Notes: a model not told the origin generated them from the sequence alone. A stretch of DNA of 41,399 nucleotides from Clostridia bacterium (GCA_017468095.1 JAFUJN010000125.1:1-41399); one strand, 5' to 3'; shown: positions 2,543-21,265, counted from the stretch's first letter. Made by a program: numbers and translations.

Positions 2543-4343
2543 TTTGTATATCTCCTTTATTATAATATTTCAAAAACTCTGTTTCATCAAGCACTTCATG
2601 CTCGAGCAAAGCTTCTGCTACGTTTTTAAGTCTTTCTGCGTTATCAGAAAGCAGGTCTTTCGCCTTTTTGTACTGCTCTTTTATGAGCCTTTCAACTTCT
2701 TTGTCAATCAAGGTCGCGACGGTTTCAGAATACGCCTTTGAATGTCCGTAATCACGGCCTAAGAACACTTCTTCGTCCGTCTCATAACAAACAGGGCCAA
2801 CTTCGTCGCTCATTCCGTATTTTGCCACCATATCACGGGCAACCTGGGTTGCACGTTTTAAGTCGGATGATGCACCATTTGAAATATCGTCTAAAATCAA
2901 ATCTTCTGCGGCTCTTCCGCCAAGAAGCACAATGATTTCAGAAAGCATATCCTTTTTACCAGTAAACCAGATATCCTCGTTTGGAATGTGCATTGTATAT
3001 CCGCCTGCTCTGCCACGTGGTATTATTGAAACCTGACGGACAGTATTACGCTTTGATACCAATTTTGCAAGGACAGCGTGGCCTGCTTCGTGGTATGCTG
3101 TTAATTTCTTTTCTTCATCGGTTACTTTCTGGGATGCTTTTGCAGGACCCATCATAACCTTGATGTTTGCATCTTCAATATCCTTTTCGTCAATCTCGGC
3201 TTTTCCGCGACGTGCCGCAAAAATTGCCGCTTCGTTCATAACATTTTCAAGGTCAGCACCGGTATATCCCGCGGTCTGTTTTGCAATCTTTGAAAAGTCA
3301 ACTTCCTTTGAAACTTTCTTGCCACGGCTATGAACCTTAAGGATTTCTTCACGGCCCGAAAGGTCAGGTCTTCCAACAGTAATCTGCCTGTCAAATCGAC
3401 CAGGACGAAGTAGCGCAGGGTCTAAAATGTCCGGTCGGTTTGTTGCCGCCATTATGATAATGCCTTCGTTTTTGCCGAAGCCGTCCATTTCAACCAACAG
3501 CTGATTTAGCGTCTGCTCACGCTCATCGTGGCCACCACCCATTCCGGCACCACGGCGACGACCAACAGCGTCAATTTCGTCTATAAATATAATGCACGGT
3601 CTTGCCTTTTTTGCCTGTGCAAACATATCACGTACACGGGATGCGCCAACACCTACATAAAGTTCAACGAAGTCCGAGCCCGAAATTGAGAAGAACGGCA
3701 CACCCGCTTCGCCTGCAACTGCTCGAGCAAGCAGGGTTTTACCTGTTCCCGGAGGTCCTAAAAGAAGAACGCCCTTTGGGATTCTTGCACCAAGCTCAAT
3801 AAACTTCTTTGGATCTTTTAAAAATTCAACAAGCTCTGAAAGCTCTTCCTTTTCTTCCTTTGCGCCGGCAACATCGCTGAATGTAACCTTGCGGTTATCT
3901 TCAAGATTCAGCTTTGCCTGACTTTTGGTAAAGTTTCCGCCGCCTTTTGCTCCGCCTTGCTGGAAAATAAGGAAAAAGAACAGCACAAGCATAAGTATTG
4001 ACGAAATCGGCATCAGGTAATCTACCCAGGAAACGCGTTTTGGCGCAACCTGATAAATAAGTGCACCCGTTTCGCTCTGTGCCAAAATTTCTTCCCCAAC
4101 ATCGCCCTGAAGCACTTCCAGCGATGGAACTTCGCAGGAAAATTTCTCTCCGCCAACCGTAGCAACCGCCGTTGTTCCGTCTACATAAAGCTCGGTAACT
4201 TCGCCTTTTTTAATATGGTTTATAAGGGTTGAATACTCTGTTCGCTTCGGTGCATTTGCCGCGTCCAAAAATGTGGAAAACAGCATGGATGCAATTATGG
4301 CAATGAGTATCCACCTGAAAAAACCTATTCTTTTAGTTTGCAA
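2526..4343 (-). CDS. ftsH: ATP-dependent zinc metalloprotease FtsH
   Basis: N-terminal TM helices. Walker [12 protein letters not shown]+ second region of homology. HEAGH zinc motif. TTG start at 4343 is preceded by AAGGAGA at 7 nt. Confidence 0.97.
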
Positions 4344-4345
4344 TT

Positions 4346-5641
4346 TTAGGTCTCCTTTATTTCTATTTTATATCCCGTTTTTTTGGTTTCCTGAAATTCT
4401 TTTGAAAACCGCATATCGCCAACGGCAATAATCTTTCCATCAGCCAAAACAATCGGGATTTCATTTCTCTTTTCATTTGGGATTTTCTTATCGGTGAAAA
4501 AGTCGGACAGCTTCTTTTTCCCTGTCATTTTTGTCGGGTAAAAAACATCACCCGCCATTTTGTTTCTCACAGTAAGGCGTGTATTTTCATCAAGGTAAAA
4601 GTCCGCCTTTTTATCCGCTTTCTTTATCTGTAAAGTTTTCCCAATTTCTAAAATGTTTAATACTTCTTCCGGATAAATTTCATAAAAAAACTCTGTTTTT
4701 TCTGTTTTTTTGGTAATTTCCAGCTTTCCGTATTCCACTTTCACGCAAAATCCGCCTGGTAAGTCTATACTTTTTCCTGTCTGATTTTTGGAAAGCTCTA
4801 AAATATCGTCAATATAATCTACGCCAAGATTCTGGCAGGAATTGGTGCTTTCTTTCCAGAAAAGCTCCAGAACACGCCTTTTTATTGGAAGTGGCATAGC
4901 ATTTAAGTCGGAAATTTTTACATCCCCCGAAAACTTTTCTTTTGCAAGGTTATCCAAAAACTCTGCATCTTCGCCTATCAAGGTGGCGTTCTTTGTCACC
5001 ACATCAACAAAGCGTGGATTAAAGTCCTTTTCAATTTTCGGTATCAGGTCTAGGCGCACCTTATTTCGTGAATAAATGGTCTCAAAATTTGTTTCATCGG
5101 TTACAAAATCATAGTCATTTTTTTCGCAAAACTCCAGAATATCCGCCTTTTTTATATCAAGCATAGGCCTTACTATATTGCCACGAACATAGGGAATCCC
5201 CGAAAGCCCCGATGTTGATGCACCGCGCATAAAGTTGAAAACCAAAGTTTCCGCCACATCGTTTTTATTATGGGCTGTTGCGATTTTATCGTAGCCCAAG
5301 CTCTCAAAAAACTCATAGCGGATATTTCTTGCGTAAAGCTCTTCGCTCATTCCCGCATTTTTTGCGCCTGTTTTAATATCTACAGTTTTACAGAAAAACG
5401 CTGCGCCCAGCTTTTCGCACAAATCTTTGCAGAAATTCATATCCCTGTCCGCAGTTCCGCGAAGCTGATGGTTTATATGACAGCAGGCAATCTCAAGGTC
5501 ATATTTCTCCTTTAGTGAAAGAAGAACATACAAAAGTGCCGTAGAATCTGCACCGCCGGACAGGCCCACAAGAACTCTGTCGCCCACATTTAGCATATTA
5601 TGGTCTTTTACAGTTTTCTCGGCAATTTTCAAAATATCCAT
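4346..5641 (-). CDS. tilS: tRNA(Ile)-lysidine synthase
   Basis: PP-loop SGGADS near the N-terminus. 431 aa with a TilS C-terminal domain. The start overlaps the dnaB stop (TAATG). Confidence 0.93.
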   Translation of the reverse strand: MDILKIAEKTVKDHNMLNVGDRVLVGLSGGADSTALLYVLLSLKEKYDLEIACCHINHQLRGTADRDMNFCKDLCEKLGAAFFCKTVDIKTGAKNAGMSEELYARNIRYEFFESLGYDKIATAHNKNDVAETLVFNFMRGASTSGLSGIPYVRGNIVRPMLDIKKADILEFCEKNDYDFVTDETNFETIYSRNKVRLDLIPKIEKDFNPRFVDVVTKNATLIGEDAEFLDNLAKEKFSGDVKISDLNAMPLPIKRRVLELFWKESTNSCQNLGVDYIDDILELSKNQTGKSIDLPGGFCVKVEYGKLEITKKTEKTEFFYEIYPEEVLNILEIGKTLQIKKADKKADFYLDENTRLTVRNKMAGDVFYPTKMTGKKKLSDFFTDKKIPNEKRNEIPIVLADGKIIAVGDMRFSKEFQETKKTGYKIEIKET

Positions 5642-14030: not shown

Positions 14031-14044
14031 AATTCTTATTTTTT

Positions 14045-14140
14045 AGAATCCCTACGCTGGCATTATCCATATCAGGTTATAGGGTCGGAACTAAAATTTC
14101 CCTCTCAGCCTGTTCACAAGCTCCCCTTCTATTATTCATC
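14045..14140 (-). promoter_or_regulatory. TPP (THI-box) riboswitch
   Basis: Minus sense reads GGGGAGC..GGCTGAGAGGGAA..GACCCTATAACCTGATATGGATAATGCCAGCGTAGGGA. It contains the conserved CTGAGA and ACCTGAT..GGATAATGCCAGCG..GGGA cores. Confidence 0.92.
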
Positions 14141-18015: not shown

Positions 18016-18612
18016 ATGATTAAAGAATTCAAAAAATCTATCGGTTATATATGCCCCGGCTGTTCTGCTATTGCCATTTGGGATAAAAACCTTTTTGACT
18101 TCTCAGGCGATGAGACTGCAGTTTTTAAATGTCACTCAAAATGCGGAGAAGAATGTGTGGCAATAACGCCGAAAAAGGATAAATATTCTATACTTATAAA
18201 CTGCCCGATGTGTGACGAAGCCCATCTTTTCAACGTGAGAAAAATCACCTTCTGGCAAAGCAAGTTCTTTGTTCTTCATTGCCCTGAAACGGGAATAGGC
18301 ATTCTGTTTTTAGGCGACCACGATACCGTAAAACACGAGCTCAGCGAACAAGAGCAAATGTTTATTAAGCTTTCTGAGGAATGCGACGTAACCCGCGAGC
18401 TTACTATGATTTTTGAGATAGTTGAGCGCATAAACGAGATTGCAAAGGAAGAAAATGTGTTTTGCGCTTGCGGAAGTCACGCCATTTCCATCGAGATAGA
18501 CAACGAAAAAATCACACTAAAATGCCGTGATTGCGGTAAGATAAAGGACATTCCTGCAAGCGAGGAAAGTCTTCAGAATTTGTTAAATGCAAGTGCCATT
18601 GTGCTTGATTAA
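18016..18612 (+). CDS. Uncharacterised Cys-rich protein with several CxxC pairs (zinc-ribbon-like modules)
   Basis: 198 aa. CPGC...CHSKCGEEC, CPMC...HCPETG and CACGSH...CRDCGK. It starts 4 nt after the ogg stop. Confidence 0.6.
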   Translation: MIKEFKKSIGYICPGCSAIAIWDKNLFDFSGDETAVFKCHSKCGEECVAITPKKDKYSILINCPMCDEAHLFNVRKITFWQSKFFVLHCPETGIGILFLGDHDTVKHELSEQEQMFIKLSEECDVTRELTMIFEIVERINEIAKEENVFCACGSHAISIEIDNEKITLKCRDCGKIKDIPASEESLQNLLNASAIVLD

Positions 18613-18644: not shown

Positions 18645-19508
18645 ATGTTAGTTTCAGCAACAGAAATGTTAAAGAAAGCCGTAGAAGGCAAGTATGCAGT
18701 AGGCCAATTTAACATAAACAACCTAGAGTGGACAAAGGCCATTCTTTTGACAGCACAGGAAAACAATTCTCCTGTAATCCTTGGTGTATCTGAGGGTGCC
18801 GGAAAATATATGACCGGTATGAAGACAGTTGCAGCTATGGTAAAGGCTATGGTTGAAGATCTTAAGATTACAGTTCCTGTAGCTCTTCACTTAGACCACG
18901 GCTCATATGACGGCGCTTACGGCTGTATCGAAGCTGGTTTCTCATCAATTATGTTCGACGGTTCTCACTACCCAATCGAAGAAAACATCGCAAAAACAAA
19001 GGAATTGGTTGACGTTTGTCATTCTAAGGGCATCTCAATCGAAGCTGAAGTTGGTTCAATCGGCGGTGAAGAAGACGGCGTTGTTGGTGCAGGCGAAGTT
19101 GCAGACCCTGCTGAATGCAAGATGATTGCTGACCTTGGCGTAGATTTCTTGGCTGCTGGTATCGGTAACATCCACGGTAAGTACCCAGAAAACTGGAAAG
19201 GTCTTGACTTTGACGCTTTAGCTAAAATCAAGGATCAGATTGGCGACCTTCCACTAGTTCTTCACGGCGGTACAGGTATCCCTGCTGAAATGATTCAGAA
19301 AGCTATCTCTCTTGGCGTTGCAAAAATCAACGTTAACACAGAATGCCAGCTTTACTTCCAGGAAGCTACAAGAAAGTACATCGAAGCTGGTAAGGACCTT
19401 GAAGGTAAGGGCTTTGACCCAAGAAAGCTTCTTGCTCCTGGCTTTGAAGCTATTAAGACTATCGTTAAAGAAAAGATGGAACTTTTCGGTTCAATCAATA
19501 AGGCGTAA
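18645..19508 (+). CDS. fba: Class II fructose-1,6-bisphosphate aldolase
   Basis: 287 aa. VALHLDHG, FDGSH, NIHG and LVLHGG(T)G motifs. AAGGAGGA SD. Confidence 0.95.
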   Translation: MLVSATEMLKKAVEGKYAVGQFNINNLEWTKAILLTAQENNSPVILGVSEGAGKYMTGMKTVAAMVKAMVEDLKITVPVALHLDHGSYDGAYGCIEAGFSSIMFDGSHYPIEENIAKTKELVDVCHSKGISIEAEVGSIGGEEDGVVGAGEVADPAECKMIADLGVDFLAAGIGNIHGKYPENWKGLDFDALAKIKDQIGDLPLVLHGGTGIPAEMIQKAISLGVAKINVNTECQLYFQEATRKYIEAGKDLEGKGFDPRKLLAPGFEAIKTIVKEKMELFGSINKA

Positions 19509-19518
19509 GTTTAAAAGT

Positions 19519-19553
19519 AAACACCACCTGTCAAAAACAGGTGGTGTTTTTTG
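19519..19553 (+). terminator. Intrinsic terminator of fba
   Basis: AACACCACCTG-TCAAAAA-CAGGTGGTGTT followed by TTTTTT. Confidence 0.85.
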
Positions 19554-19593
19554 GTGTGTGGTAACACTCTTTTGAGCATACATTTTATGTAAT

Positions 19594-19752
19594 TAAAAAA
19601 AGCGCACCGAAGTGCGCCGAAAAATGCACGCTCCGTTTACTGCGACATAAACTGAACGAAACACAAGTACAACATGCATCAAAATGCGTGCATTTTTGCC
19701 GAAAACAAAAATACACATTGCACAAATGTTTCTTTTATTCAATTTATGTCGC
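19594..19752 (-). ncRNA. Candidate orphan small RNA (~160 nt, unclassified)
   Basis: It is bounded by a consensus promoter (19759-19787) and an intrinsic terminator, GCGCAC-UUCG-GUGCGC followed by U7 (19594-19617). Long-range helix 19743-19753 / 19641-19651. Competing 12-bp helix 19686-19697 / 19620-19631. No ORF with a Shine-Dalgarno. Confidence 0.5.
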
Positions 19753-19758
19753 AAATTT

Positions 19759-19787
19759 ATTATAACACACTCAAATTCCCCTGTCAA
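19759..19787 (-). promoter_or_regulatory. Consensus sigma-A promoter (extended -10) of the candidate sRNA
   Basis: Minus strand reads TTGACA (19782-19787) - 17 nt ending in TGt - TATAAT (19759-19764). Confidence 0.65.
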
Positions 19788-19834
19788 GCTACTATTCCCG
19801 CTAAAACTTTCATATTCTTATACTGGGTGATTAT

Positions 19835-20686
19835 ATGAAAAAACTTATTCTCGGCATCATTTCCGTCTTTTTGGCGGTTATTCTTTTTATACTTTGCAAA
19901 AACTCTCTTGAAACTCTGCCTGTTTTTACTGAAAACACGCCTGTGCATCTTCCAATCCTGATGTATCACAGCGTTTTATGTGACCCACAGCGAACAGGCA
20001 AATACACCATAACCCCGAAAAAGTTTGAAGATGACCTTATATATTTAAAAGCCAACGGCTATGAAACGGTATCCTTAAAACAGGTGGTGAAATACGTTTA
20101 TCAAGGCGAGCCACTTCCTGAAAAACCCGTTTTGCTCACCTTTGATGATGGGATGTATAACAACAAGGAATACGTTCTTCCTATTCTCGAAAAACACGAT
20201 GCCTGCGCTGTTTTTGCGGTGGTTGGGAGCTATACCGATGAATATTCGCTATCTAATATTACCAACCCAAATTACAGTTACTTGAGATGGAGCGACATAA
20301 ACGAGCTTATGGAATCAGGACATGTGGAATTTGCAAGCCATTCCTATAACCTGCACAACATTTCCGCAAAAAGATATGGTACGGCGAAAAACAAAGGCGA
20401 AAGCACCCTTGACTTCATTTCCGTCTTCCACGAAGACACACAAAAAATGCAGTCGGCATTTAGTACCAACTGCGTTTTTACGCCCTTTTCTTATGCCTAT
20501 CCGTTGGGGAATTTCAGCAAAGAGAGTGAGCGAGTTCTTAAAAAGTCAGGCTTTCTTTCAAGCTTTTCCTGTATAGAGGGCATCAACATCATAACCCAAG
20601 GCGACCCCGATTGCCTTTATCTTTTAAAGCGTTATAACCGCGACGGCAGGCTATCCACAGAGAAATTTTTCAAAAAAATAATGTAA
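19835..20686 (+). CDS. Polysaccharide deacetylase (NodB-homology, CE4) with N-terminal membrane anchor or signal
   Basis: 283 aa. N-terminal hydrophobic segment ILGIISVFLAVILFIL. LTFDDG motif. HSYNLH motif. Confidence 0.85.
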   Translation: MKKLILGIISVFLAVILFILCKNSLETLPVFTENTPVHLPILMYHSVLCDPQRTGKYTITPKKFEDDLIYLKANGYETVSLKQVVKYVYQGEPLPEKPVLLTFDDGMYNNKEYVLPILEKHDACAVFAVVGSYTDEYSLSNITNPNYSYLRWSDINELMESGHVEFASHSYNLHNISAKRYGTAKNKGESTLDFISVFHEDTQKMQSAFSTNCVFTPFSYAYPLGNFSKESERVLKKSGFLSSFSCIEGINIITQGDPDCLYLLKRYNRDGRLSTEKFFKKIM

Positions 20687-20710
20687 GGAACAGATGTTCC
20701 TTACATTTTA
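20683..20710. terminator. Bidirectional terminator between the deacetylase gene and the dnaK-operon tail
   Basis: GTAAGGAAC-AGAT-GTTCCTTAC with T-rich flanks in both senses. It overlaps both stop codons. Confidence 0.7.
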
Positions 20711-21265
20711 AATTTCCTGATATTTTTCCCTGCCAATTTGGTAGATGTCATTTCCATCACTATCCACAAGGACGGTACACGGAAAATCTTCCACATAAAG
20801 CTTTCTTATTGCCTCTGTTCCCAAATCGTCATAGGCAATGACTTCGGCGCTTTTTATGCACTCTGCAATAAGTGCACCTGCACCGCCGATTGCACCTAGA
20901 TAAACGCAGGTGTTTCGCTTAATTGCTTCAATTACGTCAGGGTTTCGTGCGCCTTTTCCAATCATAACCTTAAGGCCGCAATCTAAAAGAAGTGGTGTGT
21001 ATGCATCCATTCTTCCCGATGTGGTTGGCCCGCAAGAGCCGATTATCTCACCAGGTTTTGCAGGGCAAGGGCCTGCATAGTAAATCGCTTTACCTTTTAT
21101 ATCAAAAGGAAAGCCCTTACCTTCTTTATATTCCCTTGTCATTCTCTCGTGAGCAGCATCACGTGCTGTGTAAATCACGCCTGACAGCAAAACCAAATCT
21201 CCTGCTTTTAAGGTCTTGATTTTTTCGCTTGTTAAGTCTTCTACCTTTATTTTCAAAGTATCCAT
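20708..21265 (-). CDS. Fe-S type hydro-lyase beta subunit (class I fumarate hydratase / L(+)-tartrate dehydratase beta, FumA C-terminal domain)
   Basis: 185 aa. LSGVIYTARDAAHERM, GPTTSGRMD and MIGKG motifs. The start overlaps the dnaJ stop (TAATG). No alpha-subunit gene is in the window. Confidence 0.85.
   Translation of the reverse strand: MDTLKIKVEDLTSEKIKTLKAGDLVLLSGVIYTARDAAHERMTREYKEGKGFPFDIKGKAIYYAGPCPAKPGEIIGSCGPTTSGRMDAYTPLLLDCGLKVMIGKGARNPDVIEAIKRNTCVYLGAIGGAGALIAECIKSAEVIAYDDLGTEAIRKLYVEDFPCTVLVDSDGNDIYQIGREKYQEI

Follow-up and report, generated by a model that had tools for sequence, protein, structure and literature searches.

Genomic context and predicted transcription unit

The stretch analysed here, hereafter the window, is 41,399 nt of DNA from Clostridia bacterium (GCA_017468095.1, JAFUJN010000125.1:1-41399). 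Its spacer between fba and a deacetylase gene carries a short minus-strand element, which we interpret as a gene for a small RNA (sRNA); fba converges on the element and the deacetylase gene diverges from it (Table 1). A first-pass annotation of the window had described an orphan unit made of a promoter, a self-closing RNA and a terminator, with no credible open reading frame (ORF) and, fba being convergent, no following gene on that strand. The promoter, terminator, helices, 12-nt internal complement, ORF and converging fba were all recovered at the positions it gave. For comparison, six further distinct versions of the unit were found at loci described below, so that seven are considered throughout: the window, L002, L003, L008, L010, L011 and L016.

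The promoter, which the annotation had ranked as the best sigma-A match in the window, proved to be its sole 12/12 match to the sigma-A (sigma-70-type) consensus, reading TTGACA / 17 nt / TGtTATAAT on the minus strand. Base composition predicts 0.047 such matches per window, or 0.003 when the TG is also demanded, and six 11/12 matches occur elsewhere. Among the homologues, the -35 hexamer is TTGACA in the window, L002, L003 and L010, TTTACA in L011, TTAACA in L016 and TTGTAT in L008 (4-6 of the six consensus bases). The transcription start was placed at G19752 from its fixed 6-nt distance to the -10 element, and the 3' end was placed from the terminator. G19752 is the seventh nucleotide after the -10 hexamer and the first base of both GCGACAUAAA and the 111-nt hairpin; U19753 therefore probably lies outside the RNA.

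Termination is predicted at GCGCAC-UUCG-GUGCGC followed by U7 (19617-19595), which is minus-specific, as proposed earlier, its plus-sense copy having no U-tract. The terminators of L008, L010 and L011 are of other sequence and keep the hairpin and U-tract. With its own promoter and Rho-independent terminator, kept in all seven homologues, the element is predicted from sequence to be an independent transcription unit.

Further terminators were noted downstream. The fba terminator hairpin (19519-19549) probably works in both directions, because it lies between an A-run and a U-rich run, and would form a backup terminator ~45 nt past that of the sRNA. A second minus-strand-specific terminator, GAAGCCGyCyGUUUUCrGGCGGUUUU, is conserved ~60 nt downstream of the RNA's own in L003 (~2770-2810), L008 (~190-235) and L016 (~75-115), where it could mark a longer read-through isoform. 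On the opposite strand, a TACTAT box (19790-19795, plus) stands back-to-back with the sRNA -35, ~40 nt upstream of the deacetylase start codon. A TACTAT or TAATAT box is kept at the majority of syntenic loci, and also at the majority of those without the RNA, so it probably serves the deacetylase gene as its -10; the two promoters would then be adjacent and divergent.

Table 1. Predicted elements of the RNA gene and its flanking genes (window coordinates).
Feature	Position	Strand	Remarks
fba	18645..19508	+	converges on the unit
Deacetylase gene	19835..20686	+	diverges from the unit
-35 hexamer TTGACA	19782..19787	-	17-nt spacer in 7/7 homologues
Extended -10 TGtTATAAT	19759..19767	-	TGnTATAAT in 7/7 (TATAGT in L010); always 6 nt upstream of GCGACAUAAA
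Predicted mature RNA, ~158 nt	19595..19752	-	+1 to end of U-tract, ends predicted; one copy per locus by nhmmer
P1 (GCGACAUAAA) and P1x (UUGAAU), 5' strand	19737..19752	-	pairs with 19642-19657
A-rich 5' bulge AAAA	19733..19736	-	possible hinge; asymmetric interruption 15-18 bp above hairpin base in 7/7
P2 shaft, 5' strand	19712..19732	-	pairs with 19658-19678; sequence varies; top GUGU(A)
P3 mini-hairpin in apical loop, UUUUUG-UUUUCGG-CAAAAA	19693..19711	-	closing pair G-C in 4 homologues, A-U in 3
Apical segment X1' (AAAAAUGCACGC)	19686..19697	-	complements 3' tail; also, locally, GUGUAUUUUUG
P2 shaft, 3' strand	19658..19678	-	partner of 19712-19732; top NCAC opposite GUGU
P1x and P1, 3' strand (GUUCAG-UUUAUGUCGC)	19642..19657	-	UUUAUGUCGCAGUAAAC invariant in 7/7 homologues
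Linker AGUAAAC	19635..19641	-	invariant; GUA and C also join alternative 3' hairpin
Tail X2 (GCGUGCAUUUUU)	19620..19631	-	strand common to both competing long-range helices
Terminator hairpin GCGCAC-UUCG-GUGCGC	19602..19617	-	5' arm and loop (19608-19617) double as 3' strand of antiterminator-like helix
U7 tract	19595..19601	-	5-7 U in all homologues

A conserved hairpin maintained by compensatory change

The predicted RNA is far more stably folded than expected by chance. A 164-nt stretch reached -66.1 kcal/mol, compared with -39.3 ± 3.6 kcal/mol for dinucleotide shuffles (z = -7.4; 0/200 shuffles as good). The self-closing pairing put forward earlier forms part of this fold: UGCGACAUAAA (19753-19743) pairs with UUUAUGUCGCA (19651-19641), and the minimum-free-energy structure takes in both extensions, UUGAA/UUCAG and GAAACA/UGUUUC. 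The resulting 111-nt hairpin, closed by GCGACAUAAA with UUUAUGUCGC (19651-19642), is followed 24 nt further on by the terminator. It is kept, with compensatory changes, in the six other homologues, as a near-continuous helix of 35-40 bp with interruptions of just 2-4 nt.

Conservation is unevenly distributed along the hairpin. All ten pairs of the P1 core (19752-19743 with 19651-19642) are invariant. The adjoining P1x (19742-19737 with 19657-19652) covaries through UA/AU/CG, UA/GC/AU and AU/UA exchanges. Shaft sequences in P2 are unrelated among homologues yet retain pairing, six of the 13 top pairs being altered on both sides. The apical loop then follows a common pattern, UUUUUR-loop-YAAAAA (P3) followed by UGCAC. 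Despite the unrelated shafts, the inner hairpin inside the invariant base gave z = -2.5 to -7.0 in each sequence when folded by itself. On the promoter strand, the RNA hairpin was 3-23 kcal/mol better than its reverse complement in 7/7 homologues, each with 4-8 G.U pairs.

Covariation was recovered with two alignments. A plain MAFFT alignment analysed with RNAalifold gave 14 pairs changed on both sides. A structure-guided alignment, made by hand and N-padded so that MAFFT kept columns 1-170, placed standard pairs in 98.7% of 228 cells and showed changes on both sides in 13 of 37 pairs, with a covariation score of 0.356 against 0.153 ± 0.022. None of 500 shuffles equalled the alignment in pairing percentage, in the number of double-change cells, in the number of pair types or in covariation score; one of the 500 reached 13 double-change pairs. 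Sliding the alignment registers by 1-3 columns lowered pairing to 35-54%. The conservation and covariation in relatives that the first-pass annotation had set as a test are thus present in six distinct homologues.

Divergence between the same genomes provides a yardstick for this conservation: the conserved RNA blocks are 100% identical, compared with 43-55% identity at fourfold-degenerate sites of the deacetylase gene. Across these genome pairs, fba is 79-92% identical at its fourfold-degenerate sites, which suggests strong codon-usage constraint or recent gene exchange in that gene. Collectively, the comparative evidence shows a conserved, strand-specific gene of ~158 nt on the minus strand, predicted to encode a non-coding RNA.

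Competing helices at the 3' end

The first-pass annotation had also drawn attention to a second, 12-bp complement and to mutually exclusive folds just 5' of the terminator. The complement between AAAAAUGCACGC (19697-19686) and GCGUGCAUUUUU (19631-19620) is exact, and the competition extends further than proposed, in that the tail contends both for the apical segment and for the 5' arm of the terminator. Two partners are available to the apical 3' segment CAAAAAUGCAC, namely the local GUGUAUUUUUG, in a helix with G.U pairs, and the tail, in a perfect match. The tail-apical duplex is worth -12 to -18 kcal/mol and was significant against shuffled tails in 7/7 versions (p ≤ 0.002); 95% of its alignment cells pair and two pairs covary. 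These two flanking pairs change from G-C/C-G to U-A/U-A in L003 and L008, and L011 adds a separate CUCC:GGAG extension.

The linker and tail in turn complement the 5' arm and loop of the terminator (CGRAG:CUUCG, GUGC:GCGC, GUA:UGC), with a duplex energy of -11.5 to -18 kcal/mol and p ≤ 0.014 in 5/7 versions. Compensation is seen here as well: L011, whose terminator is otherwise of different sequence, keeps ten perfect base pairs (ACGGAGCUAU:AUAGCUUCGU), L008 pairs ACGAAGUGC with GCACUUCGU, and L010 shows a G-C to A-U exchange. In the isolated 3' domain, the alternative hairpin lies 1-2.3 kcal/mol below the terminator conformer in five versions; in the remaining two, the terminator fold has the lowest energy. 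As in attenuators generally, the terminator 5' arm is predicted to be able to pair instead with an upstream segment, the antiterminator. Together, these comparisons show that the tail, the apical module, GUGUAUUUUUG and the terminator 5' half can form, on predicted pairing, a series of helices that exclude one another, the last being the terminator.

A simple two-state switch in which the tail-apical helix forms by a nested, non-pseudoknotted refold was rejected, as it costs 15-28 kcal/mol; this leaves a pseudoknot or an intermolecular contact, if the helix forms. Dimers modelled with RNAcofold gained 7-11 kcal/mol through tail-tail contacts, a result that we did not judge robust.

Distribution among related Clostridia

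Syntenic loci were fetched through homologues of the deacetylase protein; the exact fba protein of the window has no entry on record. Four of the six further distinct versions occupy the same fba/deacetylase spacer and two lie at other loci. Within the spacer, the unit is present in L002 (GCA_052830725.1; deacetylase 86% identical to that of the window), L003 and L004 (73%), L008 and L009 (77%) and L016 (77%). At nine syntenic loci (L001, L005, L006, L007, L012-L015 and L017), the whole unit from the -35/-10 region to the terminator is cleanly absent. L001 (GCA_054266095.1) retains the -35 and has lost the remainder, which points to deletion rather than excision.

Wider searches yielded few additional copies. 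A pattern scan of genome contigs, at one genome per species over 185,579 bacterial and archaeal species, returned one further copy, L010, from 'MAG: Clostridia bacterium RGIG3998' (roe-deer cecum), at a locus unrelated to the fba/deacetylase spacer. A metagenome scan likewise returned one, L011, located between alaS and a leucine-rich repeat (LRR) lipoprotein gene. The Shine-Dalgarno sequence and start codon of the latter lie within ~10 nt after the U-tract, leaving no room for a separate lipoprotein promoter. Each carrier locus holds exactly one copy by nhmmer, and blastn-short, a 3-mismatch search and nhmmer found none elsewhere in the 41-kb window or in the ~200 kb of fetched loci. Among IMG/VR viral contigs, the closing-stem pattern gave 0 matches and the 17-mer TTTATGTCGCAGTAAAC gave seven, all lacking the rest of the RNA and equal in number to the chance expectation. 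Collections of phage (50,697 records) and plasmids (72,556 records), searched with BLAST in 'distant' mode, returned no match. These results delimit a real, rare RNA family restricted to one narrow clade of uncultured Clostridia from herbivore guts.

Gene neighbourhoods were compared across the same loci, and no conserved protein gene travels with the RNA across its three genomic contexts. Some relatives have a lone fumarate hydratase beta-subunit gene (Fumerase_C; window 20708-21265, minus) between the deacetylase gene and dnaJ. It is absent in L001, L006 and L012-L015, present without the RNA in L005 and L007, and present in all RNA carriers at this locus that have an annotated downstream gene. 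Between an OGG-like glycosylase gene and fba, all syntenic loci encode a 198-aa protein with several CxxC pairs (window 18016-18612, plus) that has no Pfam match on record. In addition, an inverted-repeat element of ~150 nt (GGCTTCTCCTnGAGGAGAAGC ... CTGATGAGGTG ... CACCTCATCC ... CTTCTCCTCAAGGAGAAG) occurs on the minus strand of the fba/deacetylase spacer in L001 (~2714-3000) and L002 (~2336-2700); in L001 it occupies the place of the deleted RNA gene, and it has no Rfam match at gathering score.

Comparison with known RNA families

Screening against the 4227 covariance models of Rfam 15, with the family gathering score as criterion, matched no family to the RNA region of the window or to the RNA in seven homologous loci, in agreement with the earlier view that the RNA belongs to no known class. 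The only family found in those seven loci was Gut-1 (RF01706, 64 bits), at 5227-5304 (minus) of L010, ~4 kb from the RGIG3998 copy on the same contig. In the window, the sole family is a TPP riboswitch (RF00059, 70 bits) at 14031-14137 (minus), just downstream of an 11/12 TG-extended promoter match at 14176-14148 (minus).

A permissive E-value scan of 19480-19900 returned generic hairpin and terminator look-alikes, the best being a plant miRNA hairpin that scored 29 bits where its threshold is 101, together with a weak TarB match limited to the terminator. Within the same interval, 6S, SRP and Y RNA gave no Rfam match even at E ≤ 10. Riboswitch and T-box models matched neither the window region, at gathering score or E ≤ 10, nor the seven homologous loci at gathering score. 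ARAGORN found no tRNA or tmRNA in the region or the whole window. Assignment to SRP RNA, tmRNA or RNase P RNA was rejected on the negative Rfam and ARAGORN results, and assignment to 6S RNA on the near-continuous helix that stands in place of a central bubble and on the lack of an RF00013 match. A full-text literature search with the invariant sequence strings retrieved only a chance primer match. The RNA belongs to an uncatalogued family; the kind itself, a bacterial regulatory small RNA with attenuator-type switching, is already known.

Proposed mechanism and alternative explanations

We propose, with a probability of roughly 45%, that the RNA is an attenuator-type switch of a new family and that, in the window, the RNA itself most likely conveys the regulatory output by acting in trans. 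Such a switch would comprise four parts: the 111-nt hairpin starting at +1, with its invariant 10-bp base, a freely covarying shaft with an A-rich bulge and an invariant apical module; the linker AGUAAAC; the tail GCGUGCAUUUUU; and the terminator. When the apical module AAAAAUGCACnn holds the tail in a loop-tail pseudoknot, the terminator would form and a stable ~158-nt RNA would be released. When the module is occupied by its local partner GUGUAUUUUUG or by a factor, the tail would take the 5' half of the terminator and polymerase would read through. The order of the logic would be anti-antiterminator, antiterminator, terminator. Folding back at the conserved bulge, with arms of ~16 and ~16-22 bp, could bring the loop near the tail in the geometry that we envisage.

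Because no gene follows in the window and more terminator hairpins lie downstream, the output there is most likely exerted in trans. It would consist of the terminated sRNA and perhaps also a longer isoform, as in EutX/Rli55, the riboswitch-controlled stand-alone RNAs of Enterococcus and Listeria. The unit is probably a stand-alone regulatory RNA switch whose main product is a terminated sRNA acting in trans; its function, signal and targets are what we infer. The case for a role in cis comes from L011, where the RNA is placed as a leader directly before the lipoprotein gene.

Several observations weigh against the switch. In six of the seven loci (the window, L002, L003, L008, L010 and L016) the next gene converges and there is no co-directional gene downstream, so that the regulated gene which an attenuator would be expected to have directly behind it, in the same orientation, is found at L011 alone; this and the extra same-strand terminators, that of fba in the window and the second one in L003, L008 and L016, argue against a general cis role. 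The unit has been lost repeatedly and is dispensable and narrowly distributed, given the nine syntenic loci of close relatives that lack it. In L010 (p = 0.14) the antiterminator-like complement is weak, and in L002 (p = 0.056) it is marginal. Loop-tail pairing needs a pseudoknot across a hairpin of ~35-40 bp. The seven sequences represent ~4-5 independent lineages in all, the structure-guided alignment figures lean towards structure because they were fitted by hand, and covariation of the long-range helices rests on few flanking pairs because both cores are invariant. The transcript, both of its ends and any read-through are predictions, and no ligand, protein or target was identified for the RNA.

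The main rival is a conventional trans-acting base-pairing sRNA, which we regard as possible and less probable than the switch. Its stable 5' hairpin would protect the molecule, the seed would be AGUAAAC...GUGCAUUUUUCG or the U-rich apical strand, and the AU-rich stretch, terminator and U7 would form an Hfq-type 3' module; the alternative pairings would be folding intermediates or a self-masking device, with no switching of transcription. Possession of its own promoter and terminator, the lack of a downstream gene in 6/7 loci and the invariant single-stranded blocks all suit this explanation. So does the resemblance of the U-rich stretch and terminator to enterobacterial sRNA 3' ends, to which the weak TarB-like match, limited to the terminator, may be added. 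The further terminators downstream likewise favour it, since they suggest that read-through is suppressed rather than used. On the other hand, no target was found within the 41 kb and short flanks covered: the window shows no enrichment of the AAAAATGCAC motif, and the translation start region of the divergent deacetylase gene shows no significant complementarity in five loci (z = -1.2 to +1.75). A plain sRNA also leaves unexplained the covariation of the terminator 5' arm and loop with the linker and tail, the perfect internal copy of the RNA's own putative target, and the leader placement in L011.

Under an unlikely, more far-reaching alternative, the RNA would represent a sensor class of its own, an orphan switch that behaves like a riboswitch or responds to a factor. 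The invariant apical module would read its input by docking on the 3' tail, through a long-range pseudoknot across the folded-back ~40-bp hairpin. Its output would be the ratio of short to read-through sRNA isoform, as in EutX, and the cassette would be portable enough to be placed also as a leader, as in L011.

Less likely than a plain base-pairing sRNA, and improbable in our view, is a protein-binding or decoy RNA, in which the hairpin would be a platform, whether as RNase III substrate, as sponge for a double-stranded-RNA-binding protein or in a 6S- or Y-RNA-like role. The 10-bp base keeps its sequence on both strands, the remainder of the stem being free to covary, which suggests sequence-specific recognition. 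The near-continuous helix of 35-40 bp is also compatible with this role, and its consensus promoter implies that the RNA is abundant, like 6S and SRP RNAs. Against it stand the lack of a 6S-type central bubble or SRP domain-IV motifs, the negative 6S, SRP and Y RNA searches and the want of any protein gene travelling with the RNA over three genomic contexts. Moreover, protein binding would leave the conserved competing 3' helices unaccounted for.

Coding, mobile-element and chance explanations are unlikely. The window's ATG ORF of 41 codons has no Shine-Dalgarno sequence and continues through the terminator. A small-protein or type I toxin gene, whether the full ORF or a shorter '...FGKNA...' reading, could point to an ORF across the apical region in every homologue and to the recurring residues F-G-K-N-A. 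Their nucleotides, however, are invariant at all three codon positions, and the versions differ in start codon (ATG, GTG or TTG), in reading frame with respect to the 3' stem, in stop and in length (12-55 codons). Indels are not multiples of three, a Shine-Dalgarno-like sequence is missing in 6/7 versions, and substitutions are paired across the stem, which is a signature of RNA structure. With start codon, frame and stop unconserved, a coding gene was rejected and the earlier judgement that no credible ORF is present holds. Type I toxin-antitoxin was likewise rejected, the small ORF being unconserved and the spacer containing no opposing (antisense) promoter-like site. Translation is accordingly very improbable.

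Equally remote is a DNA-level palindrome or miniature mobile element (MITE/REP-like) in place of an RNA gene: clean block presence or absence between close relatives and occurrence at three different loci would fit, but the copies are single per locus, both wide scans gave one match each, no terminal inverted repeats or target-site duplication were seen at the junctions, L001 points to deletion, and the G.U strand asymmetry with conserved promoter and terminator are features of RNA.

Relation to known systems and biological significance

The closest parallels to the proposed switch are found among stand-alone RNA switches such as EutX/Rli55 and the antisense S-box, which are rare and informative. 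In Clostridium acetobutylicum, an S-box element is located downstream of the ubiG-mccBA operon and converges on it (PMC2566862); riboswitches that act as antisense RNAs have been described more generally (PMC9943018). The unit resembles these systems and EutX/Rli55 in having its own promoter, a structured sensor and a conditional terminator with no ORF directly downstream, and in facing the 3' end of a convergent gene, with further downstream terminators that would define a longer isoform. It differs in having no known aptamer, Rfam being negative, and in that its switching is predicted from sequence. The antisense S-box makes it conceivable that fba is under antisense control too; this is made doubtful by the probably bidirectional terminator that separates the element from fba.

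With classical attenuators and riboswitch expression platforms, the RNA shares mutually exclusive helices ending in an intrinsic terminator, near-isoenergetic conformers and, in L011, the leader position. Unlike classical attenuators, it has no regulated downstream gene in 6/7 loci and no leader peptide, T-box sequence or known protein-binding repeats, and its anti-antiterminator would be a long-range loop-tail pseudoknot instead of a nested helix. Like Hfq-type trans-encoded sRNAs, it is intergenic, with its own promoter, a 5' stem-loop, a U-rich stretch by the Rho-independent terminator and a tail of 5-7 U; in contrast to them, it has no identified seed or target, carries a perfect internal complement of its own tail and is more heavily structured than is typical. 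Finally, 6S and small SRP (4.5S) RNAs also form one long hairpin (111 nt here) closed by the 5' end, and the RNA would, like them, be abundant from its consensus promoter. It has, however, neither a central bubble nor domain-IV loops and no Rfam match at E ≤ 10 to either. 6S and SRP RNAs are near-universal, whereas the RNA described here is dispensable and patchy among close relatives.

The narrow distribution and a signal still to be found limit the immediate impact of these findings. The three-way pairing design is nevertheless unusually explicit, and presence or absence of the unit among near-identical loci supplies natural knock-outs. If the proposed switch is correct, the unit would clearly illustrate a naturally occurring, self-contained cassette in which promoter, sensor hairpin and conditional terminator are combined, at most loci with no gene downstream. 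To our knowledge, almost no riboregulation has been characterized in uncultured rumen and hindgut Clostridia; if the predictions hold, a well-defined structured RNA family would be added for these bacteria.

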